The notes under the pieces are model-generated. The model saw only the letters and a program-made list of their open reading frames with translations. It was not told where the DNA came from and made no database searches. DNA of 19,453 nt from Azolla caroliniana (taxonomy: Eukaryota > Plantae > Polypodiophyta), in the NCBI GenBank assembly GCA_043228905.1, contig JBHGNT010000604.1:1-19453 (forward strand), read 5' to 3'. Positions 1,535 through 18,667 of this stretch are shown piece by piece (within the stretch, counting starts at the first letter, position 1; each line of letters opens with the position of its first letter). Both the position numbers and the translations under genes were made by a program.

Positions 1535-2600
1535 TCATATGACCCTAGCAATGGTTGGGGGGCTATTCTCCCAAGCAATGGAGAGGGAACCAATGGCTAA
1601 AGCATTAGTTTGGGCAGAAACCCCAGAGCCCGTAGGTAAAATCAATTGACCCGCCCAAGTACTCCCATTCCATATGTTATACCACACCTTGGTGGCATCT
1701 GTAGTGGTTTTCCCATTGAAGAAGCAATAAAGTAGTCCCCCCAAGACCATGACAGAAGGCCCCCCTTGAGATTGCCAGGCCATTCTCCAATGTTAACTTC
1801 TTGTCGCCCACCCAGTTGAGCCCGTCGGATCGGAGGACGAATTATACCACATTGTCCCATCACTTTTGCTCCCTTGGTGAAAGCAGTATATTTGGTCCTC
1901 ATACACAGCTGCCCCTGGCTTGGCTGTCAGGTATGTGTTGGGGACTTGCCTGTCCGACATGGTTGCATTGCCGTTGAATATGTTAATCCAAACACGACCC
2001 TCAAGATACGTCGTGTCTGTTGTGGCTTTGATCTTCCCATTGTACAAGTTGCACACATTGTTCTGGAATAACACGGGGGATGTTATGTTCGGCGTTATCC
2101 CAATATCGTACGTGTTTTGTCCGTCTTCGTTTACTTCAAGATTGATCTCAGTAGGTTTTCCCCATGTATTGGTGCTTGTGTTCAATGTGATGAACGCGAA
2201 TGTAGTCTCATTGACAGGATAGAAGATATGGATCTTCTCCTTGTAGAAGATCGAAGATGGTCCAGCTCCGGCCGCGACTGAAATACCGTCGAGAGGTACT
2301 TTTGTCTCGCCTTTCCATGTAACGCCATCGAGCATGTTGTAGTAGATGGCACTGTTCGCCGTGACCGCGTAGAACAAGTAAATCTTCGAATCCACGAGGA
2401 ATACGGTGCCCTGGCCTCCGATCGTCGCGCTGGTGACGGGCCCCTGCATTTCCGCCCAGTTGTTTGTCCTTCGGTCTAGCAGGGAGAACCACAATTGCTT
2501 GCTGCTCGTTCCAACCTTTGCTTGGTGGAACAAGAAGGCGGTGGAGTACAAGCTTATGGGCAGCGTGTTGTCGACGGCGCTTCGATGGGCAAATGTGTAT
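1535..2600 (-). pseudogene. Last exon of the propeller gene (second propeller, six blades)
   Basis: Acceptor CGCAG|A. ORFs 1793..2620 and 1535..1783. Removing a TCCGA duplication and one extra base restores ...YNSSSDGLNWVGDKKLTLENGLAISGGPSVMV... Stop TGA at 1537-1535. Confidence 0.85.
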
Positions 2601-2707
2601 CTGCGTAACATCACACACATATAGGTCTGTACTTTAAAAAAAACATATTATTAAATATTGAACATGACCAATGAGGCACACTTATGCATACACATGCATC
2701 ATGAATC

Positions 2708-2773
<66 letters not shown>
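2708..2773. repeat. (AGT)22 microsatellite within intron
   Basis: Perfect trinucleotide run of 66 bp. Confidence 0.98.
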
Positions 2774-2869
2774 CACATGGGTGTTTTTCTGACAATGTAT
2801 ACTTATTTATACATGCAGCACAAGAAGAGAATATATGTATATGCATGGATCGTGAAGGTCAGAAGTGAC

Positions 2870-3461
2870 CTGGGTATTTGTTTGGCGGCATGAACAGCCG
2901 TATCATAAGAACCAGTAGCATCAAAAACTTGGGCAATGGCGTTGATAAAGTTGGTGCTGGGATACTCGATGCAGAGCCTGGTGCCATCTCCATATGAGCT
3001 GTACAGAAGTGGTAGCTTGGTGGCAGCGATCAAGTAACCGTGATCGGCTGCGGTTAAGGACTTAACGACTGACGCAAGCTCTGTGAATCCTTGGTATCCG
3101 CTCGAGAAGCCGCCGACATTGTGGAGGGCTGGGTCTGCCCACAGATCCTCCCACGCGAGGGTCCCAGCGGAGAAGGATCTGTAGTAGAGCGACTGTACGA
3201 GGTTGCCGGCGCCTTGGTAGAATATGAAAAGCTTGTCTTGGAAGACGGTGGTGCCGAGGCCGTCCGTGGTGACAGCGTGGGGTGTCCCCCTTCCACAAGA
3301 TGCCATCAGAGGAGGTGTTGAACCATAGCTCGCCCGACGTCCCACTCTGATGGAACACGTAAAGCTTGTCATCGAACGTTACTGCAGACGGCACATCGTT
3401 GATGGCGCTTGTATATGGAAGCTCCACATGGCCGCTCCACTCCCCTGTCGTGGGGTTCAGC
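2870..3461 (-). pseudogene. Exon C of the propeller gene (blades 5-6 and inter-propeller domain), frameshifted at ~3283
   Basis: Acceptor GACAG|G. ORF 3062..3481 (VPSAVTFDDKLYVFHQS...WKGD) shifts into ORF 2803..3372 (PHAVTTDGLGTTVFQDKLFIFYQG). Donor AG|GTCACT. Confidence 0.8.
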
Positions 3462-3605
3462 CTGTCATTACTCAAGCGCAATCAGCACACACAAATCTCA
3501 AGATCATCATTTAACAGAAAGAAAGAACGAGTGGCCTCTTCTTTGGTGATTAGTGAACTAATCTATGCACTAATTCGATGATGAGCATGCATTTTATTAG
3601 ATTAC

Positions 3606-3763
3606 CTGTTTACCAACAGCTTGCTTTGCAATTCGCCCGCTCCCTGGTAGAAACAATAGATTGAGCCCTTGAACACGATGGCTGATGGACTCCCCCCGTT
3701 ATCAGTGTGTCGTTGACTAGCTTGTCTCCTTCCCAGGTGGACCCATCGCTCGTCACGTTGTAC
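3606..3763 (-). pseudogene. Exon B of the propeller gene (blade 4), frameshifted; absent from the ORF track
   Basis: Acceptor CCTAG|G, then YNVTSDGSTWEGDKLVNDTLITG / frameshift in a G6 run / SPSAIVFKGSIYCFYQGAGELQSKLLVN, then donor AG|GTAAT. Confidence 0.8.
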
Positions 3764-3812
3764 CTAGGTATACATATATATTGGCATTAGCATGAATATG
3801 TATATATGTTAG

Positions 3813-3964
3813 TTAGTTCAAAACGTTTACTTGTAACGACAATATGTGCAAGCATATGCATTGCCCCCCACGCAACAAAACGAACTTGTCCTTTTCACAC
3901 CATAAGTGTGTGTCTCCGCGCACATGCACACACATGGTCGTCGTACAAACGAGTTTTGAGCCAA
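3813..3964. mobile_element. Possible degenerate MITE/foldback element in intron
   Basis: Left end TTAGTTCAAAACGTTT..TGTAACGACAATATGTG resembles the reverse complement of the right end, TTGGCTCAAAACTCGTTTGTACGACGACCATGTG. No clean TSD. Confidence 0.45.
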
Positions 3965-4067
3965 TGTAGTGTGACGTGTGATGTTAGGAGGAAGTACGCA
4001 TATTAGAGAGGGCTAAAGGATAGAGCATTCTTATATATATGCAACCTTTGAGTTGTAGCATACTTAC

Positions 4068-4819
4068 CATAACTCATTGTCGTTATTAGTGTATCCTTGA
4101 TGGAAGACATAAAGTTTGCCATCGTGTATGACTGCTGATGGGCCACCCGTGATGCGGGTGTTTGGGATTCGGGCATCGGGTACCCAGCTCGATCCATCGA
4201 ACACCGTGAACCACACCTCGTGCCGGCTCGCGTTACCATTATGGAATACATAGAGCTTGTCGTTGAAGACCACATCATTGGGTCCATCGGTCACGGTGAC
4301 ATCGGTCACTGTCGTCGGCAAACTCCAGGCACTAGTGGTGGGATCGTAGGCGACATACCTTAACTTCTTTTGGTTGAATCTGTTGCCTTGGAAGAAGCAG
4401 TAGAGCTTGTCTTGGAAAGGGATAGGGGAGGGCCACTTGGTGTTGCCCACATTAGCCACTTGGGTGCTTGGGTGGATGCCGATACTACGGTTCCAAAATT
4501 CAAAGACAAGTTTCTAGGCGGGGTAGCTATGAGATAGTGAGAGCAAGCCAGCCATTACTTTAGCTGTAACTGCGGCAAGATCCTCATGGCTGAGTAGATG
4601 TTCTTCTTGTTCCCCGGACACGGTGACGATGGCGACGCCGACTTTACCACTCTTGGACAAAGGGAGGGCTCTCTCGGTCTTCGGTATGGTCATGCTCTGG
4701 AGTTGGGTCCACGCATCCTGAAGAATGTCGGTCGTGTTCTCGAGCCATTCCTCCGCGAGGTTGACTTCCTCATCGGCTGCAAAGATGCTGCTCCCGAGGG
4801 CCAGGGAGGTGGCGACTTC
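4068..4819 (-). pseudogene. Exon A of the propeller gene: N-terminal domain plus blades 1-3
   Basis: One frame reads EVATSLALGSSIFAADEEVNLAEEWLENTTDILQDAW...SHSYPA*KLVFEFWNRS...WPSPIPFQDKLYCFFQG...ELW and ends at donor TG|GTAAGT (4068/4067). Includes ORF 4064..4459. Confidence 0.75.
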
Positions 4820-5614
4820 CTATGTTGTAATTTCTTTATGATGTTTGTGACCTTAGAGGCCGTGAAGAGTGTCCCCACAGTAGGTCGGGGTGTAGAAGGC
4901 ATTGGAATGGGTGGTTGGTTTGGGATTTGGTAAAGTCTCTCTTTATAAGTGTGCCAAGTTTCGGTATCTTCGATGGGTGTTTGTGGTCTTGGTTCTTGTG
5001 ATCTCTTCCATGCAGTGGCACAATCGCTACTCATGAACCATATGGTAGAGTTCCCAATATTGGGATGCCTCCCATGCTCGTCTCTTATGACGTGTCATCT
5101 TGCGCATTTCTTTACGAGCTTGTACTGAGGTAATACTACCACTGAGTTGTGATATTGTAAGTTGTCTATGTAAGCACCTACAATCCTCATCATACCATCT
5201 ATTTTGTGGCATAGATCCTACTTTACCTTGATTGGAGTGTTTCGTGTATGGGAAACTGCTAACTGCTGCAGAGTGAAGGATGTGTGTGAATTTCGTATTA
5301 AGGTAGTACTAAGGCTCTCTAAAGGTAGGGAGGGATCAAGGGAGGAGAGATGGGCTTGAACATGTCGAGCATATATGTCAGAGAGCTCATGTGTGAAATG
5401 TATTGTGATGTCATGGCGTGGTTGACTAGAGTTGGTGACGTTAGAGATATCGCATTTTAGCTCGAGCACAGTTGATTATCTAATAGGACGCCCTGAAGCT
5501 ACCCATATGATTAACTCCTTCCAAGTGGCCCCATGTCCTATTGGTTCCCCTCCTCCATGTGGGAAACATGTGAGCTCTTCCGAACCTGGCCACTTGGCTA
5601 AACCATTATTCATG
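4814..5614 (-). mobile_element. LINE (RTE-like) fragment: end of endonuclease domain and linker up to start of RT; same family as 10938-12946
   Basis: ORFs 5218..5469, 5027..5212 (MPQNRWYDEDC) and 4690..5034 (IKKLQHRKS) are colinear homologs of ORF 10938..11804. Segment 5465-5544 is inverted. Confidence 0.92.
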
Positions 5615-5982: not shown

Positions 5983-7319
5983 CTTATACTCCCATGCAAA
6001 ACAATGTGGTGGAATGGATCAACCGAACAATCCAAGAGAGCGTGATGATAATGAGAGCATGATGATAATGCTCCAACAATCCAGTTAGAATTCTGGGCCG
6101 AAGTATTGTAGACGACAGTATACATGATCAATTTGTTGCCGTCGAGAGCAATACGGCTCAAATTGCCACAAGCATTATGGTCAGGCAAATAGCCGACCTA
6201 TGATAGGCTCCATATATTCAGATGTGAAGCCTATGCATTCATCCCCAGGGAGAAAAGAACCAAGGTAGCACCCCATGCACTCAAGTGTATATTTCTTGGT
6301 TATGGAACCGATGGCGATTTCGACTATCGGCTATGGGACCCAGAGAACCGGAAATTGATCCAGAGTAGTGCTGTAGTCTTCAATGAAGACTCGATTCTCT
6401 ATGGACAGAACCAACCGAAAAGGGTTGGCAAAAAGGTCTCTTTTGACATCGACATAGATGCCATAGAAGGACCGACCCATAGGGCCGAATCAGAGATTCC
6501 ACAAGCAATAGAAATCAATGGAGCCATGAACCCCCTTGCCGGATCTGAATCGGTTAGAGGTCCACTAGTCGAAATTGATTCGACTACGAGATTGACAAGA
6601 GGTGAAAGAGACAAAGCCGAAATGACCAAATCACCCAAACATGCCAAAGTACTGAAATGTTGAACAAAACTGACCAAGGCACTAGCCAGTCTGTCAATCC
6701 ATCCTGAAGAAGGGGAGGATGATTCAACATCGCAGAAATCCTATTGTAGGGTCGAGTCATCCAAAAGAAATCCTTAAGAAGGTTCAAGTAATACCGATAA
6801 GCCAACAGAGCCGATCTATGGATTCGAACCAATCAACTCAGCACCGAGGAGGTCCTGACGAGTCGAAGGCCAACAAAGTTCTATCAACTAGGCCTCGACT
6901 ATGTCAACTACACGAATGTAGGCGAACCAAGCTCCTACGAAGAAGCTATAGCCATGCCAGAAGCTAGCCATGTCTACAAGCCATGAAATTCGAGATGGGT
7001 TCAATTCATCAGAATCAAACAGGGGAGTTGGTTGAATTACCAAGTGGAAGGAAGTTGTTGCCCTGCAAATGGATCTTCAGATACAAATATGTATCTGATT
7101 TGGAGAAGCCCAAATAAAAAGCTTGACTTGTCATCAAGGGATTCAAACAAGAACACAGGGTTGACTATGATGAAATATTCTCACCAATAGTCAAGATGAC
7201 CACCCTTTGACTCCTACTTGGGGTCATGGCGTCTAAAGACCTAGAGCTTGAGCAGCTTGACGTCAAGACGACATTCCTACATGGAGATTTGGAAGAAGAC
7301 ATCTATATGTCTCAACCGG
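5983..7319 (+). mobile_element. Old degenerate Ty1/copia pol, part 1 (integrase C-terminal half, linker, RT N-terminus)
   Basis: Motifs YTPMQN...NRTIQE, KCIFLGYG, YRLWDPENRKLIQSSAVVFNE, KGFKQ...DYDEIFSPIVKMTT and DVKTTFLHGDLEEDIYMSQP, with many stops. Confidence 0.92.
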
Positions 7320-7545
7320 TGTCGCGGAAATACGACGAGGATACGTGAACGTTGAGGCAAGACCCAGGGGCCTTTGACTAGAGGATATCAAATTCGTGTA
7401 TTTATGTACTAAGAATTAACAGAAATGAGAAAGATTAACAAATTTCATTAACAAGTAGAAAGAAAGATTACAATTAATCCCAAGATTGGGATTACAAAAA
7501 GTGTGCTAATGGAGATGGCTAGAGTAATAGATTAGAGGAAATTAA

Positions 7546-7706
7546 GATATGAATTCTATAGAAAATTAGGGTTTTTGGCTTTGATAAGAGATTATAGTTT
7601 TATGAATTGAATAGCTTCCGTATGGAAATTTAGGGTTATGAGTAAGATATGGCTTCCGTAAGGAAATTAGGGTTTACTTGAGAGATATGGCTTCCCTAAG
7701 ATAAGG
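7546..7706. repeat. Three to four degenerate ~37-bp repeats with telo-box-like TTAGGGTT(T)
   Basis: Recurring ATATGGCTTCCGTAAGGAAATTAGGGTTT-like unit. Confidence 0.7.
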
Positions 7707-8050
7707 GAGTTGAGAAGGAAAAGAAAAAGAAATATAATATGGAGAGAGCATGAGTGTAAGAAAAAAAATGGAATATATATTGAGTTCTCCCTTGATCATA
7801 GCCTTTCCACTTTTTGTTGCATGGCCTCTACTTTTAGTTGCCTAGCTTTTTCTTTTAGTTGCATCTATTTTTAGTTGCATGGCTTTTTCTTTTAGTTGCA
7901 TGTGACCGTCCACATGACCTTTACTTTTTGCATGCACTCCAACTTTAGTTGCTTGCGTCCACATGGCCTTTACTTTAGTTCTCTTCACTTTACTTTAGTT
8001 TGTTGCATGATCCAATCTTTCGTCCCTCCGCGTCCAACCTCGTTCGGTAG

Positions 8051-8489
8051 CCGGTTCCATTTTGTTTGCCGGCCGGTTCTTGTTCCGGTTTGCTCGCCGG
8101 TTCCGGTTCCGATTTTGCTTACCGATTCCGGTTCCGGTTTTGCTTATCGGTCGGTTTCCGGTTTGCATACTGGTTCCGGTTCCGGTTTGCTTGCCGGTTC
8201 TGGTTCCGGTTTTTGGTTTGCATACCAGTTCCGGTTTTGCTTGCCGACCGGTTTCGATTCCAGTTTTGCTTACCGACCGGTTTCCGGTTTGCATACCGGT
8301 TCCGGTTCCGGTTTTGCTTACCGGCCGGTTTCCGATTTGCATACCAGCCGGTTTCCGATTCCAGTTTGCTTGCCGGTTCCAGTTCCAATTTTGCTTACCA
8401 GTCTATTTCCGGTTTGCATACCGGCCAATTTCCGGATTTGCTTACCGAAACCGTTTTCCGGATTTGCTTACCGGCCGATTTCCAGTTTT
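8051..8489. repeat. CCGGTT-based minisatellite with ~48-bp higher-order unit
   Basis: Units such as TACCGGTTCCGGTTCCGGTTTTGCTTACCGGCCGGTTTCCGATTTGCA. Explains the low-complexity ORFs in several frames. Confidence 0.9.
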
Positions 8490-8803
8490 AGGGAATTTGG
8501 CCACCATCATCAATCAAGACAAAGTGGCCAAAGTACTCTTAGCACAAATGAAAAATGAGGGAGCTCAAGGTGCTTATATAGCCAGGGCCTTAACTTTCCT
8601 ATCTATGTGGGATAGTTCTAATTTCCCTATCTTCTCAAACTTTATTTTAACATAACTTGATATGTATTTCTCCATTTTGTATATAGTAAAATACATTTTG
8701 AAGCTCTTGAATATATATCCATCTTTCTATAATAAGCTACTAATCTAATCTATAATAATTATTTCATTATTTTTTTACATAGTGTGTGAAGATTCACACG
8801 ACA

Positions 8804-10101
8804 CCAACACGCTTCACAATAATGGGGGAGGAAGGACACCTCGTATGTCGACTAAAGAAAAGCATTTATGGCTTAAAACAAGTGCCAAGAATGTGGTATT
8901 AGAAGTTCGATACCTACATTTTGTAGCTTGGCTACCGCCGGTTCGACTCTGGCCCATGTATGTATATTTAGCAATTGGCTAACGAATCCTAGATCTATCT
9001 GATACTATATGTCGATGACATGCTCATCGCCGGCAACGATCGAGAAGAAATCGGAAAGTTAAAGCAGAGCCTTCACGATAAATTCCCGATGAAGGAACTC
9101 GAACAAGCCCGACACATACTAGGCATGCGGATAAAGCGAAATCGGATAGCAAAGACCCTCCAGTTCTCCCAATTCGACTACATCCAAAAGGCGCGGAGGC
9201 GCTTCAATATGGAGAATGTGAAGCCAACACCAACACCGATTCCAACGTCATTCTGACTATCGGACAAAGACTCTCCTTCAATTGATGAGGAGAGAAAGCT
9301 CAATGGAAAGATACCCTATGCATCGGTCGTAGGAAGTATCATGAATGTTATGGTCGCGACCTAACTTGACCTTGCATATGTCGTAGGGGTCATTAGTAGG
9401 TATATGTCAAACCTAGAACGAAAGCATTGGGAGGTTGTCAAGCACATATTTAGGTATCTAAGAGAAACCGAAGTTGTACAACTGACTTTCGGATCAGCAA
9501 ATGCAACCAAAGTTGAAGACTATGCCAGAAATACGGATAATTGGATGTCGACATTAGACTATCTCTTCACCTATGGTGGCCGCACCATATCATGGAGGTC
9601 TAAGCTTCAAGATTACACGACCCTGTCTACCACAAAGGCTGAGTACATAGCAGCATTGGAGGCCGTGAAGGAAGCCATTGAGATGCACCAACTATCAACC
9701 GACTTCTCGTCGACAAGGCGAATTGACCATCGAACGCCGACCATTGACTACGACTCTAAGAGCACAATACACCTCATCCAAAATCTAGTCTATCATGCCA
9801 AGACGAACCACATTGAACTACGGTTTCATCATATCCGAGAGCTCGTAATAGAGAAGAAGCTCGAAGTTCGGAAGATCGACACCGAGGTGAACATCGCCGA
9901 TTGCCTGATGAAGCCACTCCCAGATCAATGCTCCATAGCACTAAGGACAATGATTGGACTACGACAAGCAACCGAGCAGAAGAGAACCGAAAAAATAGTA
10001 GAAGGAAAGTCGAAGATTGACCCGATTAGACGAGCTAAAAAGGTAAAGTCAAAAGAATCAGAATGCCAATAAACTGAAGATGTAGCACTAAGAGAGGATA
10101 T
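8804..10101 (+). mobile_element. Old degenerate Ty1/copia pol, part 2 (RT with YVDD, RNase H, charged tail) and possible PPT
   Basis: LILYVDDMLIAG at ~9000-9033; ISWRSKLQ, STTKAEYIA, HIELRFHHIRE and NIADCLMKPL in ORF 9404..10072. AAGAGAGGATAT-TGT at 10090-10104 may be the PPT and 3' LTR start. Confidence 0.9.
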
Positions 10102-10937: not shown

Positions 10938-12946
10938 ATGATCATATATAATGGCTTAGCCAAGTGGTCGGGCTCGGAAGTGCTCACATGTTTCCCACAT
11001 GGAGGAGGGGAAAGCACAGTTGATTACCTAATAGGACGCCTTGAATTACGGGTGGCCCCATGCCCCATTGGTGTAGACCATAGCTTCCTATACTTTGAGC
11101 TAAAATGCGACACCTCCCACGCCATCAACTCTAGTCAACCAAACCATCACACCATAATACATTTCACGCATGAGCTCCCTAACACCTACTCTAGATATGT
11201 TCAAGCCCATCTCTCCTCTTTTGATTCTTCCTTGCCTTTAGAGAACCTGACTACAGAACTCGCACACACCCTTCACTCGGCAACAATTAGTAGCTTCCCA
11301 TCCACGAAACACTCCAATCATAGTAGAATAGGGTCTATGCCACAAAACAAGTGGTATGACGAGGATTGTAAAGAGTTGTATAGACAACTTAAAGTGTCGC
11401 GACTTAGTGGTACTATTTCCTCAGTACAGGCTCGAAAAGAGATGCGCAAGATGACACGTCGTAAAAGACGAGCTTGGGACGTATCCCAATATTTGGAACT
11501 CTACCATATGCTCATGAGTAGGGATTGTGCCCTTACATGGAAGAGACTACGGGAACCGCGACCACAAGCACCCATCAAGGATCCCAATATTTGGCAAACA
11601 TATATCGAGAGACTCTACCATGTCCCAAACCAACCACCCCTCCCAATGCCTTCCACACCCCGACCTAACATGGGGACACTTTTCACGACCTCTAGGGTCA
11701 CGAAGGCCATAAAAAAATTACAACATAGGAAATCCATGGACCACACAGGATTGCAAGCCGAGCACATCATATATGCTCGAGAGTGCCTAGCCCCCCCTCG
11801 CTGAGGGTTTTCCACCACAATGGACCATGAACACAGTGGCCCCTATACATAAAGAAGGGGACTCAATGGACCCAAATACATATAGGACCATTATGATAGG
11901 CCATACACTCGCTAAATTATATGGTGCGGTAATGGAAGCGGAGCTTAGCGATTATATGGAAACATTAAGTCTTCGAGGACCTGAGCAGGCTGGCTTTAGA
12001 CGAGCATTCTCTACTATTGACCATATCTTCACACTTAGGTGCTGAACTGACCAGACGAAGGCTCGTAAGAAGAAACTATATTGTTGCTTTGTGGATTTCC
12101 GCAAAGCCTTTGACATAGTTCCTAGGGAGAAGTTGTTTGATAGACTTAAGAGCTTGGTGATACCAAATGACATGATCTGGGCCATTTATGCTCTATATGA
12201 GCAAGTCTCTGGGTGCGTAAGATGCCCAGGTGGCCTATCCGATTGTTTCACTACCACCATTGGTGTAAAACAAGGTTGCCCCCTATCACCGACTCTTTTT
12301 GGGATCTACATTGATGAGATCACTGATTTTATTGCTCGTAAGGGAGGCAAGGGAGTAGCGATTGGGGATACGCAAGTTAGTCTCTTACTCTACACAGACG
12401 ACATTGTCTTGCTCTCGGAGTCTGAACACGACCTACAAAAGCATCTTAATGCCCTAGATGACTTTTGTACACAACGAGGAGTGGTAGTGAATCTAGAAAA
12501 AACTAAAGTCCTTATCTTTCATACATCGTTCCGAGTTAGGAGTAAATGTCATCTAATCCTCTCTCATAAACTAGTTGAGGTAGTTGGATCATATGTATAC
12601 TTGGGAGTCACTTTTAGTGCTCGCTCAGGTAAATTGCCGATGACCCAGGCAGCCAAAGATAGGCTAACGAGAGGGTATGCATCCCTCTCACTCTTAGAGA
12701 GACAATGTCACCAGACATACTTTCAAGAGCCACGGACTAAGGGATGGCTCTTCGACTCATTACCAACCCCTTCCCTCATGTATGCATCAGTAGTATGGGC
12801 TCCAGGTCTACCATCTTTCATGTGGATGCAATTAGAGAGACCTTTGGTGACGATGTTATCACGTCAACTCCGAAGCAAATCGACAAATAACACATGACAT
12901 TATTAGAGTAGAGTTCAGTCTGCCCCCGATGTTAGTAGAAGCACTG
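10938..12946 (+). mobile_element. Non-LTR retrotransposon (RTE/RTEX-like LINE), 5' truncated and degenerate: endonuclease end and reverse transcriptase
   Basis: STVDYL...DH (APE C-terminus); RT motifs QAGFRR, DFRKAFD, GVKQGCPLSPTLF, LLYTDD, YVYLG. Deletion/frameshift at ~11795, TGA at 12043, frameshift at ~12885. Interrupted by an LTR. Clade assignment is tentative. Confidence 0.93.
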
Positions 12947-13234: not shown

Positions 13235-13236
13235 TT

Positions 13237-13906
13237 TGTTGGGAATCGACGCTTCGATTCACCTTCACCACTCGGCCACAACCGAGGAAGCGCGAATCAA
13301 TGCAGCAGAAAATAGCAAACACGGAGAAAGACACGAATACACAGGGATTAACGTGGAAAACCCTAGACGGGAAAAACCACGGGAGTGCAAGACTCCAACT
13401 ATCACTATACGCTGGGAAATATATAATGGCGAGCTGCAAGGCGACGACCTTGAGCTCGCTATCCTCGCCACAGGCGGCGGTATTACACAGAGGCGTCGAC
13501 CTCTTCCTCCACTCTCTCCCTCTCGGCTGCTCTCACTTCGCTCCCTCTAGGTGAAAACAGAAAAATGAGCAACAACATTTAAACTGTTTGCCCTAAGTCA
13601 TATTTATACACATATGACTTTCGGGCTATTTACAAATATAGCCTCAAGGGCTCTTGGCAAACATATTCACAAATATGTCCCCGCATCCGGATCTCTCTCC
13701 GGGTACATTCGTCATCCGGCTCCGTAGTCGGAGTCTTCAGCATCCGGCTCCGTAACCGGAGTCTTCATCATCCGGCTCCGTAACCGGGGTCTTCATCATC
13801 CGGTTCCGTAACCAGGGTCTTCATCATCCGGCTCCGTAACCGGGGTCTTCATCATCCGATTCCCGGATATCCGACCATCCCATCCGGAGGGACCGTAATC
13901 CCAACA
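13237..13906 (-). repeat. 3' LTR of young copia
   Basis: TGTTGGGA...TCCCAACA; 666/670 identical to 17998-18667. Confidence 0.98.
13713..13852. repeat. Five 28-bp tandem repeats in U3 of 3' LTR
   Basis: Consensus CATCCGGCTCCGTAACCGGGGTCTTCAT. Confidence 0.95.
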
Positions 13907-13908
13907 AA

Positions 13909-13918
13909 CTCCCCCTTC
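13909..13918 (-). other. Polypurine tract of young copia
   Basis: GAAGGGGGAG on minus strand, 2 nt before the 3' LTR, overlapping the pol stop. Confidence 0.92.
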
Positions 13919-16900
13919 ACTTCGGCATGGGATGTCTCTCCAATCCGATCCTTTTCCGGCATGCTTCCAGCTTGTCGGGTGTGAGTACCTTGGTCAGCAT
14001 ATCCGACCCGTTCTCATCCGTGTGGATCTTCGTCAGCATGAACTCCTTGTCTTCTATCCTTTCCCGGATCCAGTGGTATCTACGCTGGATGTGCTTCGTC
14101 CGGGAGTGATAGGCCGCATTCTTCGCAAGGTGGATGGCACTCTGACTGTCGCAGTAGAGTCGGTACTCCTCCTGCCGGATACCGAGCTCTCTAATGAAGT
14201 CCTTCATCCATATTATTTCCTTGCCGGCTTCAACAGCCGCCATGTACTCCGCCTCCGTGGTTGACAACGCAACCGTCTTCTGCAGCCTCGACTGCCACGA
14301 AACAGCTCCCCCTGCATACGTCATCACATACCCTGATGTGGACCGGCTGGTATCTGCATCAGCCGACATATCCGAATCGGTAAAGCCGTCGAGTTCGGGC
14401 TTTCCGGAGCCGAATCGGAGGCACACGTTTGCCGTGCCCTTCAGGTATCGGAGTATCCACTTGACCGCGTTCCAGTGCTCTTTTCCAGGATTGCTCATGT
14501 ACCGGCTCACCACTCCGACTGCATATCCTATGTCCGGTCTCGTACACACCATGGCGTACATCAAGCTCCTGACGGCTGAGGCATACGGCACTTTCATCAT
14601 ATCCTCCTTTTCAGCCTTTGTCTTGGGACTTTGCTTGTTGGATAGCTTGCAGTTTGCCGGGAGAGTCGACCCGACTGGTCTTGCTTCCGACATGTTGAAC
14701 CGGTGAAGCACCTTTGTCACGTACTTCTCCTGTGACAGCCACAACTGCTTCTTCTTCCGGTCCCGGATGATGTGCATCCCTAGTATTTGCCTCGCCGGAC
14801 CCAGGTCCTTCATTGAGAAGGTTCGGTGAAGAGCCTTCTTCAGCATCTGTATCTTGACCTGGTCCCGTCCGACGATCAACATGTCGTCCACGTACAGGAG
14901 GAGTATTAGAAAGTCTCCTCCTTCGAACTTCTTCACAAACACGCAGTGGTCGGACTGCGTTTTGAGGTACCCTTCGTTGGTCATGAAGGAGTCGAACTTC
15001 CGGTACCATTGCCGGGGAGCCTGCTTCAGTCCGTAAAGGCTCTTCTTCAACCGGCATACCAGGTGCTCCTTCCCTTTCTTCTCGAATCCTTCCGGTTGCT
15101 GCATGTAGATCTCTTCTTCGAGGTCACCGTGAAGGAATGCCGTCTTCACGTCCATCTGTTCTACCTCGAGGTCCATGCTTGCCGCTATACTCAGCACCGT
15201 CCGGATGGAGGTCATCTTCACTACCGGGGCAAATATCTCGTCGAAGTCGACGCCCTTCTTCTGCTGAAACCCCTTTACCACGATCCTGGCTTTGTATCTC
15301 GGGGGGTTTCCGGCATCTCCCGGTTTCAGCTTGAACACCCACTTGTTTCGAAGTGCCCGCTTTCCTTTCGGCAACTCCACAAGTTCATATGTGTGGTTCT
15401 CATGCAGGGAATCCATCTCGTCCTGCATGGCACTCAACCACCTGCGGCTCTGGGTGTCATGCTTTGCTTCTTCAAAGCTCTCCGGCTCCCCCTCGTCGGT
15501 TAGCAGCACGTGCTCTGGTTCCGGAAATCTCCGGGGGGCCCTTCTCTCTCTTAGAGGATATCTCCGTTCCGGGGCTTCGGTAACCGGTTCTTCCGTTTCT
15601 TCTTCATCCGAATCCATTTCGGGATCGGGGCCGGTTCCGGTATCATTTTCATCTTCTTCGGCCGGTTCTGTTTCTTCACCGTCTTCGGCCGGATCCTCGA
15701 GTGCTAACCGGTCCCTTGCCGGTCGGGACTGCTCCTCGTAGAGTTGATCCTCACCGGTCGACTTGGAGCTCTTCATCTTCTTCTCCGACTCCCAGTCGGC
15801 GAGTGTCTTGTTCTCCATGAAGATGATATCACGACTCCGGAATATCTTCTTGTCGACCGGGTCCCATACTCGGTAGCCGAACTCGTCATCGCCGTAACCG
15901 AGGAATATGCATGGCCGGGTCTTTGGATCTAGCTTTCCTCTCCGGTCCTTTGCCACATGCACGTATGCGAGACACCCGAACACCTTCAGATGCCGATAGG
16001 ATACTTCCCTACCGGTCCACACTCTCTGCGGCGTGTCTCCGTCCAAAGGTACTGAGGGTGATCTGTTTATCACGTATGTCGCCGTCGACATCGCCTCAGC
16101 CCAAAACCCCTTGGGTAATTCCGCATGCGCCAGCATACTCCGGACCCTCTCCATTATGGTCCGGTTCATCCTCTCGGCCAGCCCGTTCAGTTCCGGCGTC
16201 TTCGGCACAGTAAACTCGAGCCGGATTCCCTTCGAGCGACAGTACTCCGCGAACTGCCCCCGGTATTCCCCTCCGTTATCCGCTCGTATCGCTTTCAGCT
16301 TCTTGCCGGATTCCCTTTCCACTCTCGCGTGGAGTTATTTGAAGACGCACAACACTTGGTCCTTTGTCTTCAACGGTGCCGTCCACAGCTTCCGGCTGTG
16401 ATCATCAATGAATGTTACGAAGTACTGGGCTCCGCCATGTGACTTCGTTTCTACCTGACACACATCAGTGTGCACCAACTCCAATGGTGCGCTACGTCTC
16501 GTCGGTGGCCTTGAGTGGAAGGAGGTTCGGTTCTGCTTACCGGCCAGGCAATCGGTGCACTTCTCCAGGTGCACGTGCTTCACTGGAATAAGGTTGTCTT
16601 CTGCAAGCCTCTTCATCCCCTTCTCACTCATGTGGCACAGTCTTTTGTGCCACAGCTCACCGGCAGTGTCGGCTGCCACATTCAGCTCTTCCGGACATAA
16701 CCGGGCATTCATCAGGTACAGTGTGTTGACTTTCCGGGCCCGAGCCACTATCAGGCTCCCCTTGCTGAACTTCATTACGCCGTTCCGGATGCTACCTGTG
16801 TAGCCTTCATCGTCTAGCCTCCCGGCCGAAATCAGGTTCAATCGAACCTCCGGAACGTGTCGGACATCCTTCAGCAGCATTTTGCATCCAATCGAGGTTG

Positions 16901-17967
16901 GCAATCCGGCACGTACCTTCATTTCCCATCCGAACACAGCCATGTTCACCGGCTGTGTAGGATGAGAAGTATCTTCTTTCCGGGGTCAGGTGGAACGACG
17001 CTCCGGAATCGACCACCCAGGTCGTCTCATCGCCGGCAATGTTTAGTTCACCTTCTTCGGTGATGAGCATGATTTCTTCCTCACTTGCCACGAGTGCCGT
17101 CGTTCCTTTCCTGTCCTGCCCTCGCCAATCCGGACCTCTCCAGTCCGTGGCTCCCCGATATGCACCGTTTCTCTCCGGTGACTTCTTCGAATCGGTGTCG
17201 TCGGCTCCGTTGTCCTTTCGGTAATGCCGATAATTCTTCCGGAAGTGCCCCGGCTTCCCACAGTGGAAGCATGTGGGTCTTCCTCTTGACTGCGACCGGG
17301 TCCCCGACTTCTCCCGTCTTTGCGGACTCTGGTTCCATTGTCTTCCCCGTTCCGATTCGGTAAGCAGCGCCTTCGAGTCGGAGGCCGGTTCTTTATCTCT
17401 CCGACGCGCTTCTTCGTTCAAAATACTTGTCTTTACCGTTTGTAGGGACAAGTTATCTTCGGTGCAGGAGGTGCTGAGAGTCACCACCAGGTTCTCCCAG
17501 CTTTCCGGCAATGTACACATCAGGATGATGGCTTGCATTGCATCCTCCAACGGGAACTTGATCGCCGCAAGCTGGTTCACGAATCCCATGAACGTGCTTA
17601 CGTGTTCCACCATACTCTCGCCGTCCCGGTACTTGAGGTTCACTATCTTCCTCATCAGGGAGGTCCGGTTCAGCGCATTCTTCCTCTCGTAGAGGCCCGA
17701 CAGCTTCCGCCACATCTCATATGCGTTGGTGTCGTTCGCCACATGTTGTAGAACGCTCACGTCGACGTATTGCCGAATGGTTGCAACGGCTTTCCGGTTC
17801 AGAAGCCTCCATTCCGACTCAAGTACCCCCTTCGGTATTTCCGACCTGTCAATCGGTTCGTACAGGTCCCGAACAATCAGAAGATCCTCCATCTTGATCT
17901 TCCAGTCGGCGTAATTCTGCGCATTCAGCACCATCATCCCCGGCTGCCCGCTGCCGCCGCCTTCCAT
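13917..17967 (-). pseudogene. gag-pol: Copia gag-pol polyprotein, disrupted by one frameshift (16899/16900) and one in-frame TAA (16337-16335)
   Basis: ATG at 17967. Gag WKIKMEDLL; knuckle CFHCGKPGHFRKNY; protease VDSGAS; integrase WHKRLCH..CTDC, HTDV, RADNGGEY, NGLAER; RT LYVDD; RNase H TDSD, EAEY, CDSQSA, SDMLTK. Confidence 0.96.
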
Positions 17968-17982
17968 TTTCTGCAGCAGCTC

Positions 17983-17994
17983 GCTCTGATACCA
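17983..17994 (-). other. Primer-binding site complementary to initiator tRNA-Met 3' end
   Basis: TGGTATCAGAGC on minus strand, 3 nt (AAC) after the 5' LTR. Confidence 0.96.
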
Positions 17995-17997
17995 GTT

Positions 17998-18667
17998 TGT
18001 TGGGAATCGACGCTTCGATTCACCTTCACCACTCGGCCACAACCGAGGAAGCGCGAATCAATGCAACAGAAAATAGCAAACACGGAGAAAGACACGAATA
18101 CACAGGGATTAACGTGGAAAACCCTAGACGGGAAAAACCACGGGAGTGCAAGACTCCAACTATCACTATACGCTGGGAAATATATAATGGCGAGCTGCAA
18201 GGCGACGACCTTGAGCTCGCTATCCTCGCCACAGGCGGCGGTATTACACAGAGGCGTCGACCTCTTCCTCCACTCTCTCCCTCTCGGCTGCTCTCACTTC
18301 GCTCCCTCTAGGTGAAAACAGAAAAATGAGCAACAACATTTAAACTGTTTGCCCTAAGTCATATTTATACACATATGACTTTCGGGCTATTTACAAATAT
18401 AGCCTCAAGGGCTCTTGGCAAACATATTCACAAATATGTCCCCGCATCCGGATCTCTCTCCGGGTACATTCGTCATCCGGCTCCGTAGTCGGAGTCTTCA
18501 GCATCCGGCTCCGTAACCGGAGTCTTCATCATCCGGCTCCGTAACCGGGGTCTTCATCATCCGGTTCCGTAACCGGGGTCTTCATCATCTGGCTCCGTAA
18601 CCGGGGTCTTCATCATCCGATTCCCGGATATCCGACCATCCCATCCAGAGGGACCGTAATCCCAACA
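17998..18667 (-). repeat. 5' LTR of young copia
   Basis: TG...CA ends, adjacent to PBS, carries the same 5 x 28-bp array (18474-18613). Confidence 0.98.
18362..18369 (-). promoter_or_regulatory. Putative TATA box of 5' LTR (copy at 13601-13608)
   Basis: TATAAATA on minus strand, downstream of the U3 repeats. Confidence 0.7.

Follow-up and report, generated by a model that had tools for sequence, protein, structure and literature searches.

A broken gene in the fern Azolla caroliniana points to a family of putative split pseudo-proteases with two beta-propellers, probably of microbial origin

Introduction

What kind of protein was encoded by a plant gene whose repeats look microbial, and how would a fern have come by it? 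The question is raised by contig JBHGNT010000604.1 of the Azolla caroliniana assembly GCA_043228905.1, which was analysed over its whole length of 19,453 nucleotides (hereafter the window). Its minus strand carries, between positions 1535 and 4813, the remains of an intron-containing gene with two beta-propellers. On balance, we consider it probable that these remains represent a damaged copy of a plant gene with spliced introns, that its family derives from a microbial zinc protease bearing propellers, and that the plant copies are binders that no longer cut. The locus had been noticed in a preliminary description, made from the DNA alone, as a dead copy of a possibly acquired family with repeats of the fucose-lectin type.

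Structure of the gene

The gene comprises four exons and three introns, each of the latter running from GT to AG, and its coding pieces sum to 847 codons including stops (all gene features lie on the minus strand). The surviving part of exon 1 (4068..4813) was delimited by alignment with P0038, whose residue 42 aligns at 4813 (76% identity, gap-free), and by a donor site at 4067. It is followed by intron 1 (3764..4067, 304 bases), exon 2 (3606..3763), intron 2 (3462..3605, 144 bases), exon 3 (2870..3461), intron 3 (2601..2869, 269 bases, containing an AGT microsatellite) and exon 4 (1535..2600, with the stop codon at 1535-1537). Exons 2 and 3 were placed by collinearity with P0002 and by contigs from sequencing runs; P0002, a homologue of 891 residues without breaks, taken from a Logan contig of 3.2 kb, aligns collinearly with each of the four exons, at 48% identity in exon 4. 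P0038 and two further open reading frames (ORFs) from ENA, P0053 and P0029, are single exons terminating at the same intron positions, and are up to 83% identical to the window.

The exon joins were seen in contigs of four runs from three studies, those across intron 1 (3760-4065) and intron 3 (2600-2870) in 4/4 runs and that across intron 2 (3460-3605) in 2/4. The RNA status of these runs is a guess, so that the spliced joints, and not the labels, are the evidence of transcription, and read depth was not used to rank expression. The gene sits in plant nuclear DNA among plant-type retroelements, and its introns are spliced; the guanine-cytosine content is 0.50-0.55 in the exons vs 0.34-0.40 in the introns. 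The gene of about 850 residues with 6 + 6 blades, the GC-rich exons and the 'hidden' exon (exon 2) of the preliminary description were thus all recovered; its gene edge at 4819 has to be moved to 4813, where homology begins.

A split zinc-metalloprotease-like domain

The stretch preceding the first propeller and the apparent linker following it are, as judged from sequence, the two halves of a microbial zinc-metalloprotease-like domain of the HExxHxxGxxD type, with propeller 1 inserted between them (for the HEXXHXXGXXD motif see PMC3890501, available to us in part). These stretches had been taken for a mere N-terminus and linker; they do belong to the gene, and about 150 of their codons make up the split domain. 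The N-terminal half (4475..4660) corresponds to residues 95-151 of the structural model of a fern homologue (P0019, described below), in which it forms a strand-helix-strand unit, and the C-terminal half occupies 2899..3153. A profile built from 33 unsplit microbial protease domains had a sole match in the 523-Mb genome, at 2923-3156 of the window (E 3e-6), and BLASTP of the C-half region gave 35% identity over 77 residues with the bacterial L014 protein. The relationship was found in both directions, a non-plant C-half profile retrieving the fern-type protein P0021 (E 3e-13) and a fern C-half profile retrieving L014 (E 5e-15). In the P0019 model, the two halves are predicted with a confidence (predicted local distance difference test, pLDDT) of about 80-95 and with the expected secondary structure, in the strand-helix order of the zinc-metalloprotease fold; the fold-search lists for the whole model were filled by the propeller. 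Matches of the protease profile to T4 lysozyme (E 0.07 or more) were treated as chance. Upstream of the N-half lies the remnant of an N-terminal domain, likely a prodomain, that is common to the microbial proteins (4661..4813, alignment A1); a fern-only profile of this part picks up bacterial N-termini (E 5e-9), and an Atlas query with the N-terminal 165 residues returned nothing.

The zinc-binding helix itself (2902..2952, located by alignment with microbial copies) is degenerate. In the window it lacks the His, Glu, His and Asp found at the corresponding positions of the microbial HExxHxFGxxDEY. HExxH is gone in the window and in 14/14 fern-type proteins that cover the helix, and intact in P0022, P0024, P0041, P0048, P0090 and P0125. 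The alignments also place a four-residue deletion at the zinc helix of the fern-type copies, which have furthermore lost the Cys-rich tail with its Met (M202, invariant in the 33 microbial domains); intron 3 lies where this Met-turn-like tail is absent. These features mark the fern-type copies as putative pseudo-proteases, catalytically dead.

The microbial family

Several microbial proteins (P0022, P0024, P0041, P0048) have the length and layout of the window gene, but at the place of the window's 'linker' they show HExxHxFGAxDEY together with a Cys-rich tail. The bacterial and fungal layout is prodomain, split protease and two propellers, intronless in the loci examined. P0022, for instance, is a single ORF of 896 residues with the full layout (locus L093), and it adjoins bipA and a lysyl-tRNA-synthetase-like ORF, neighbours that identify the locus as bacterial. 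P0125 has the same protease domain uninterrupted.

In a motif scan, 223/321 matches in GTDB genomes and 463/600 in metagenomes encode a relative; the best 80 were kept from each of the two sets, the microbial relatives being selected by the HExxH pattern. This is a widespread zinc-metalloprotease-like family, as far as its motifs indicate, and one without a name, because its members fall below all Pfam and NCBIfam cut-offs. M12 models match 30/33 and M7 models 22/33 members below cut-off, and the nearest PDB sequence to the protease profile is 1c7k (E 0.004), the zinc endoprotease snapalysin.

The gap between the protease halves measures 5-16 residues in 137/142 microbial locus proteins for which both halves could be scored, and 214-289 residues in the other 5. 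A count by motif distance gave 17 proteins with inserts, and tectonin repeats were found in the insert of 3/4 that were scanned with Pfam. Because the gap is short in most members and holds tectonin inserts in others, propeller 1 is an insertion at a site that accepts different propellers. Bacterial members with such inserts include L021:4001-6328, L026:2323-4581, L050:4001-7432 and L033:4001-8305, three with tectonin and L033 with a longer repeat insert. One further protein, P0058, combines the same prodomain-like N-terminus and a propeller with a different C-terminal domain in place of the protease.

The propeller repeats

A blade profile built from non-plant proteins only recognized 12 blades in the window, six in propeller 1 (3154..4456, across exons 1-3) and six in the more diverged propeller 2 (exon 4). 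Nine of them scored 22-53 bits; the other three, all in propeller 2, are weak (2.0-5.1 bits, compared with a maximum of 3.4 in 200 shuffles). The same profile gives six blades per propeller in P0002, L093 and P0024. The AlphaFold model of P0019, computed with a 52-row alignment (pLDDT 87.9, predicted template modelling score 0.81), places a propeller of six blades at residues 152-449 or so, with a confidently predicted alpha/beta half on either side. A single-sequence model of P0002 (pLDDT 32) was rejected, and large MAFFT alignments (A3), which laid unsplit proteases onto the propeller, were dropped for A4.

The nearest relatives of the blades are the PLL and PHL lectins of Photorhabdus. They are the best match of a sequence profile in the PDB (PLL2, E 7e-9; phmmer with P0002 alone matched no PDB chain), they occupy ranks 1-21 of the Foldseek search at E 1e-15 and 20-23% identity, and the family PF26607 (Beta-prop_PLL) is precomputed on P0002. 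The blades, of about 47 residues, have LW and W-x-x motifs together with a conserved set of their own (H/Y-Q-G, L-W-Y, D-G, W-x-G-D). No model in the Pfam copy used fits this mobile six-bladed repeat. The propeller fold and the microbial type of the repeats, both suggested previously, are thus upheld; the proposed assignment to the AAL/RSL lectins is not. No AAL/RSL chain was matched by sequence in the PDB at E up to 5, and the triad Arg-Glu(Gln)-Trp(Tyr) given for each AAL-type site (PMC8352872, seen in part) is absent, there being at most one Arg and three Glu in any column of the 12 window blades; this count does not depend on a register to AAL.

The sugar sites of PHL fared no better. Its fucose site consists of Thr and two Trp, and its galactose site of Arg, Glu, Gln and two Trp (PMC5584973, in the part available). 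With the register taken from the profile-to-PDB alignment, the first Trp of the fucose site is found in 7/12 window blades, the Thr in 1/12 and the second Trp in 0/12, and the Arg, Glu and stacking Trp of the galactose site each in 0/12. The two structural Trp positions of PHL are kept in 7/12 and 11/12 blades. Because the site residues of neither PHL nor AAL are kept, the repeat is best described as PLL-like, and as a member of neither lectin family (the propeller lectin classes are treated in PMC11186620, of which we had a part).

In the structural comparison with VIA-align, the highest scores were obtained by sialidases (Z 27.1), AAL (Z 26.6) and SapL1 (Z 26.3), at 9-14% identity. Sialidases of the GH33 type have a catalytic arginine triad; in a comparison by blade columns, the window blades have no conserved Arg column. 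Viral fold matches were set aside as generic propellers. A plant Kelch or F-box-Kelch protein was also considered and rejected: Kelch_FKB95 reached 67 bits vs a cut-off of 70, and Kelch_1 was marginal, no stretch passing alone. With Kelch models at or below cut-off, the earlier statement that this is no standard plant Kelch or WD40 repeat stands, and no F-box or BTB partner was found on the gene with Pfam models.

Among 40 long microbial matches, the repeat is fused to GH30 (3), GH18 (2), papain-type (3) and ricin-B (2) domains, and to ConA-like, tail collar and delta-endotoxin N domains; 12/40 had no Pfam match at E 1e-8. It behaves as a mobile module, P0020, P0073, P0030, P0031 and P0045 joining it to tail collar, delta-endotoxin N, papain-type, GH30 and GH18 domains; propeller lectins on injection-system fibres have been described (PMC12923769, seen in part).

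These results bear on a different view of the plant proteins, which accepts the same microbial origin and makes the propellers a Kelch-like scaffold for binding proteins in a housekeeping or developmental role. The non-conservation of the lectin residues, the presence of Kelch domains among the structural matches (Z 21-23), the weak Kelch scores in Pfam and the lack of an evident signal peptide all fit it. We nevertheless regard it as unlikely, since PLL lectins are closest both by sequence and in Foldseek, many of the domains fused to the repeat in microbes act on carbohydrates or bind surfaces, and the gene transfers reported for ferns are tied to defence (PMC9477723 and PMC12448838, each available in part).

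Conservation of the disabled domain

The loss of the active site has not been followed by decay of the whole protease domain. Between fern-type paralogues, the C-half and propeller 1 are equally conserved, with identities of 79/80, 44/43, 56/57 and 49/64%, and every fern-type copy strongly retains the cleft-side strands (TKLPLxYxxYxD.xRLC[IVL]xYP). Both observations would suit a decoy or trap, in which the dead cleft still binds peptide and likely sequesters the substrates or inhibitors of attackers, with the propellers as anchors; expressed pseudopeptidases after gene transfer are indeed on record in Hordeum (PMC13520124, in the part available). Even so, there is only a small chance that this is the function, because deletion of the Cys-rich lower part in ferns has removed one wall of the cleft, and because the conservation may reflect mere folding around the inserted propeller. 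A non-cutting binder, whose dead domain chiefly holds the propeller, remains the account that we favour.

State of this copy

The copy in the window is a pseudogene, as had been proposed. It has one in-frame stop codon (4514..4516), four frameshifts (near 3692 in exon 2, near 3276 in exon 3, and near 1825 and 1760 in exon 4), and its first 41 or so codons have been replaced by a fragment of a long interspersed nuclear element (LINE; 4814..5609, minus strand) that abuts exon 1. The fragment is 78% like the LINE at 10948-11734, and in run X1 its depth is about 1e4-1e5 vs about 100 on the gene.

Intact relatives also exist, in agreement with what had been anticipated. Contigs free of each of the four frameshifts were found in 4/4 runs, contigs extending past 4813 into sequence other than LINE in 3/4, and at position 4516 both runs that cover the stop (X1 and X9) read a different base. 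Most run contigs are 96-99% like the window, and a second form is about 87-93% like it. Since the introns are skipped exactly and the breaks are absent in these contigs, intact spliced versions must be present in the same plants or in close relatives of them. The assembly yielded no further copy, and the window is the whole of a small contig, so that intact copies may be absent from the assembly. Searches for the lost 5' piece drew a blank in the window and, with a 52-residue query, in the genome, the latter being no proof of absence. A count of 17 synonymous to 21 non-synonymous differences comes from 38 of the approximately 300 listed, a biased sample, and was not used.

It could be argued that most of the breaks were introduced during assembly and that the gene is in fact functional: the copy is the only one in the assembly, on a small contig, whereas the runs hold intact forms 96-99% alike, and none of the run contigs or proteins compared shows the stop, the 3276 break or the LINE junction. 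This is improbable, as the 3692 break recurs in a gap-free contig of run X3 (possibly the source sample), the out-of-frame peptide produced by the 1825 break also closes the ENA protein P0173, and simple homopolymer errors would not be expected to combine a stop with multi-base indels and a LINE junction.

Distribution and origin

A full HMMER search with P0002 over 1.84 billion representatives yielded 2172 proteins with E values of 0.001 or lower, and the best 150 of these were listed. Eight plant-type clusters are among them, and the four that bear a name, in look-ups covering 22 proteins, come from ferns of two species; the range in plants may be patchy. Three are transcripts of Pteridium aquilinum (P0019, P0028, P0129) and one is P0122 of Adiantum nelumboides (MCO5569324.1); P0021 and the three ENA ORFs mentioned above are also of plant type. 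Word-index searches for homologues proved insensitive, with 2, 2 and 1 matches. P0122 is far closer to the microbial form, though its gene model departs from it immediately ahead of the zinc helix; this protein could represent an intermediate that has changed less, a further transfer event or a contamination.

The family is present in fungi as well. P0090 comes from a Xylariaceae fungus and has the zinc motif intact, and P0024 (L094:3977-6703) is a single ORF amid genes read as fungal-looking; the copy on this fungal contig and a bacterial copy are 41-45% identical in their protease parts. Together with P0157, these two are fungal or fungal-looking split proteases with an intact zinc motif, one of them intronless, and possibly reflect a separate transfer into fungi.

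In an unrooted tree of the non-propeller parts (50 rows, 230 columns, 35/153 locus proteins remaining once thinned), all eight rows of fern type fall into a single clade (support 100/99) among bacteria of seven phyla; a 20-row full-length tree gives the fern-type clade 100/100. Approximately unbiased (AU) tests on the former gave p 0.43 for a fungal sister, p 0.29 for a bacterial sister and p 0.59 for P0122 joining the ferns, and on the latter p 0.53 and p 0.12 for a fungal and a bacterial sister.

The family was very probably acquired from a microbe by horizontal transfer, because bacteria have it in diverse and intact forms, the microbial loci examined contain no introns, and few plant members are seen. 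Of the preliminary proposal of horizontal acquisition, the microbial relatives and the fern-only named plants speak for the transfer; as to the expected nesting within one donor clade, the AU tests choose no sister. Introns occur only in the plant copies among those examined, and the intronless counterparts at L093 and L094 agree with the suggestion that the gene was intronised later. The converse history, in which an old eukaryotic gene was present in the common ancestor of fungi and plants and then disappeared from most lineages, would account for the fungal members (P0090, L094) and for a fern-fungus clade that the AU tests do not reject, but it is very improbable, given that plant-type sequences in the best 150 amount to eight clusters of which the named four are ferns, that the copy on the fungal contig, a single ORF, closely resembles its bacterial counterpart, and that many independent losses would be needed.

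Other elements in the window

The remainder of the window is rich in retroelements. A near-complete Ty1/copia long terminal repeat (LTR) retrotransposon with readable gag and pol ORFs occupies 13235-18667 on the minus strand; its LTRs (13235-13906 and 17996-18667, 672 bases each) are 99.4% identical, so that the insertion is recent. On the plus strand there are a LINE piece with a reverse-transcriptase domain (10948-12900), part of which (10948-11734) is the stretch resembling the fragment that truncates the gene, and decayed copia-like pieces (6193-10070), broken by a GC-rich tandem array (8050-8490) with units of about 12-24 bases.

Discussion

The history that we favour would begin with a microbial zinc-metalloprotease carrying one propeller within its protease domain and another, terminal one, both serving as interchangeable modules that direct the enzyme to a surface. 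The fern proteins would retain the inactive protease fold as a scaffold holding propeller 1, and their twelve blades would bind a ligand multivalently, most likely a glycan on the surface of microbes or herbivores. The protein would be stored in the cytoplasm, as the lack of an evident signal peptide suggests, and would act on wounding or invasion. That the blades bind glycans, as their relatedness and fusion partners suggest, is about evenly poised, and a role in defence is predicted with slightly less than even confidence. A fuller version is possible, though rather doubtful: ferns would have taken over an entire microbial zinc protease guided by lectin modules, inactivated its site a single time in a shared ancestor, gained introns and further gene copies, and since then maintained the protein under constraint as a twelve-bladed defence lectin or decoy with a new kind of sugar site.

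Several points weigh against the favoured account. The possibly patchy range rests on two named plant species among the best 150 of 2172 proteins. The backbone of the tree is open and unrooted, and the AU tests reject neither a bacterial nor a fungal sister. The residues of the PHL fucose and galactose sites are largely missing from the blades, and since sialidases tie with AAL in the structural comparison, the fold tells no function. No signal peptide was evident at the N-termini in a crude hydropathy scan. Fern-type copies agree poorly with one another in the protease N-half (23-55%). The proteolytic activity of the microbial proteins is itself deduced from their motif. Finally, a protease fold is absent from the fold-search lists; as the propeller filled these lists, this is no counter-evidence to the fold.

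No description of the family was found in the literature covered; subscription journals and supplements, including lists of transferred fern genes, lay outside this coverage and may hold members under gene numbers. The available part of a 2025 review on plant gene transfer (PMC12448838) contains neither 'protease' nor 'peptidase', and that of the Ceratopteris genome paper (PMC9477723) contains no 'lectin', 'peptidase' or 'propeller'. Gene transfers into ferns, PLL-like propellers and pseudo-proteases are each known, and it is their combination that appears new. The window copy, being a pseudogene, has its value as a pointer to the family. With a catalytic site lost clade-wide in a domain that is still conserved and transcribed, the evolution of a pseudo-enzyme after transfer becomes directly testable, and the analysis also exposes an unnamed, widespread microbial metalloprotease-like family that takes different lectin-type propellers at one site of its catalytic domain. 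If the proposed history is true, a horizontally acquired weapon has been domesticated by disarming it.

By its parts, the protein can be compared with three known groups. With the PLL/PHL lectins (PropLec7A) it shares homology and length of the blades, along with the best PDB and Foldseek matches; those lectins have seven blades, whereas here there are six, in two propellers, one of them inside a protease domain. The AAL/RSL lectins (PropLec6A) are likewise six-bladed with Trp-ended blades, and superpose at a root-mean-square deviation of 2.9 over 264 aligned residues, but at 12% identity and with no conserved Arg/Glu column on our side. Proteases of the snapalysin (M7) and M12-like types resemble the microbial relatives in the HExxHxFGxxDEY motif and the Cys-x-Met turn, in keeping with 1c7k as the best PDB match; the family described here differs in being split by a propeller and, in its fern-type copies, in having neither zinc ligands, catalytic Glu nor Cys-rich tail.

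By its history, the family is closest to the genes of microbial origin already known from ferns, such as Tma12, which protects cotton against whitefly (PMC12448838), aerolysin-like proteins, PAD and the fungal fruit-body lectins (PMC11906373), which are patchy and duplicated as well (see also PMC9477723). Their folds are unrelated, and none is described, in the portions of these sources available to us, as an enzyme that persisted once its active site was gone; the present family does not figure in those portions. The C1A peptidase of wild Hordeum (PMC13520124, also in part) offers the nearest parallel in fate, having been transferred, duplicated and hit by transposons, with pseudopeptidases expressed. 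That transfer, however, was recent and from plant to plant, it concerned a cysteine protease, and active copies persist, whereas here the loss of the site is common to the whole fern-type clade.

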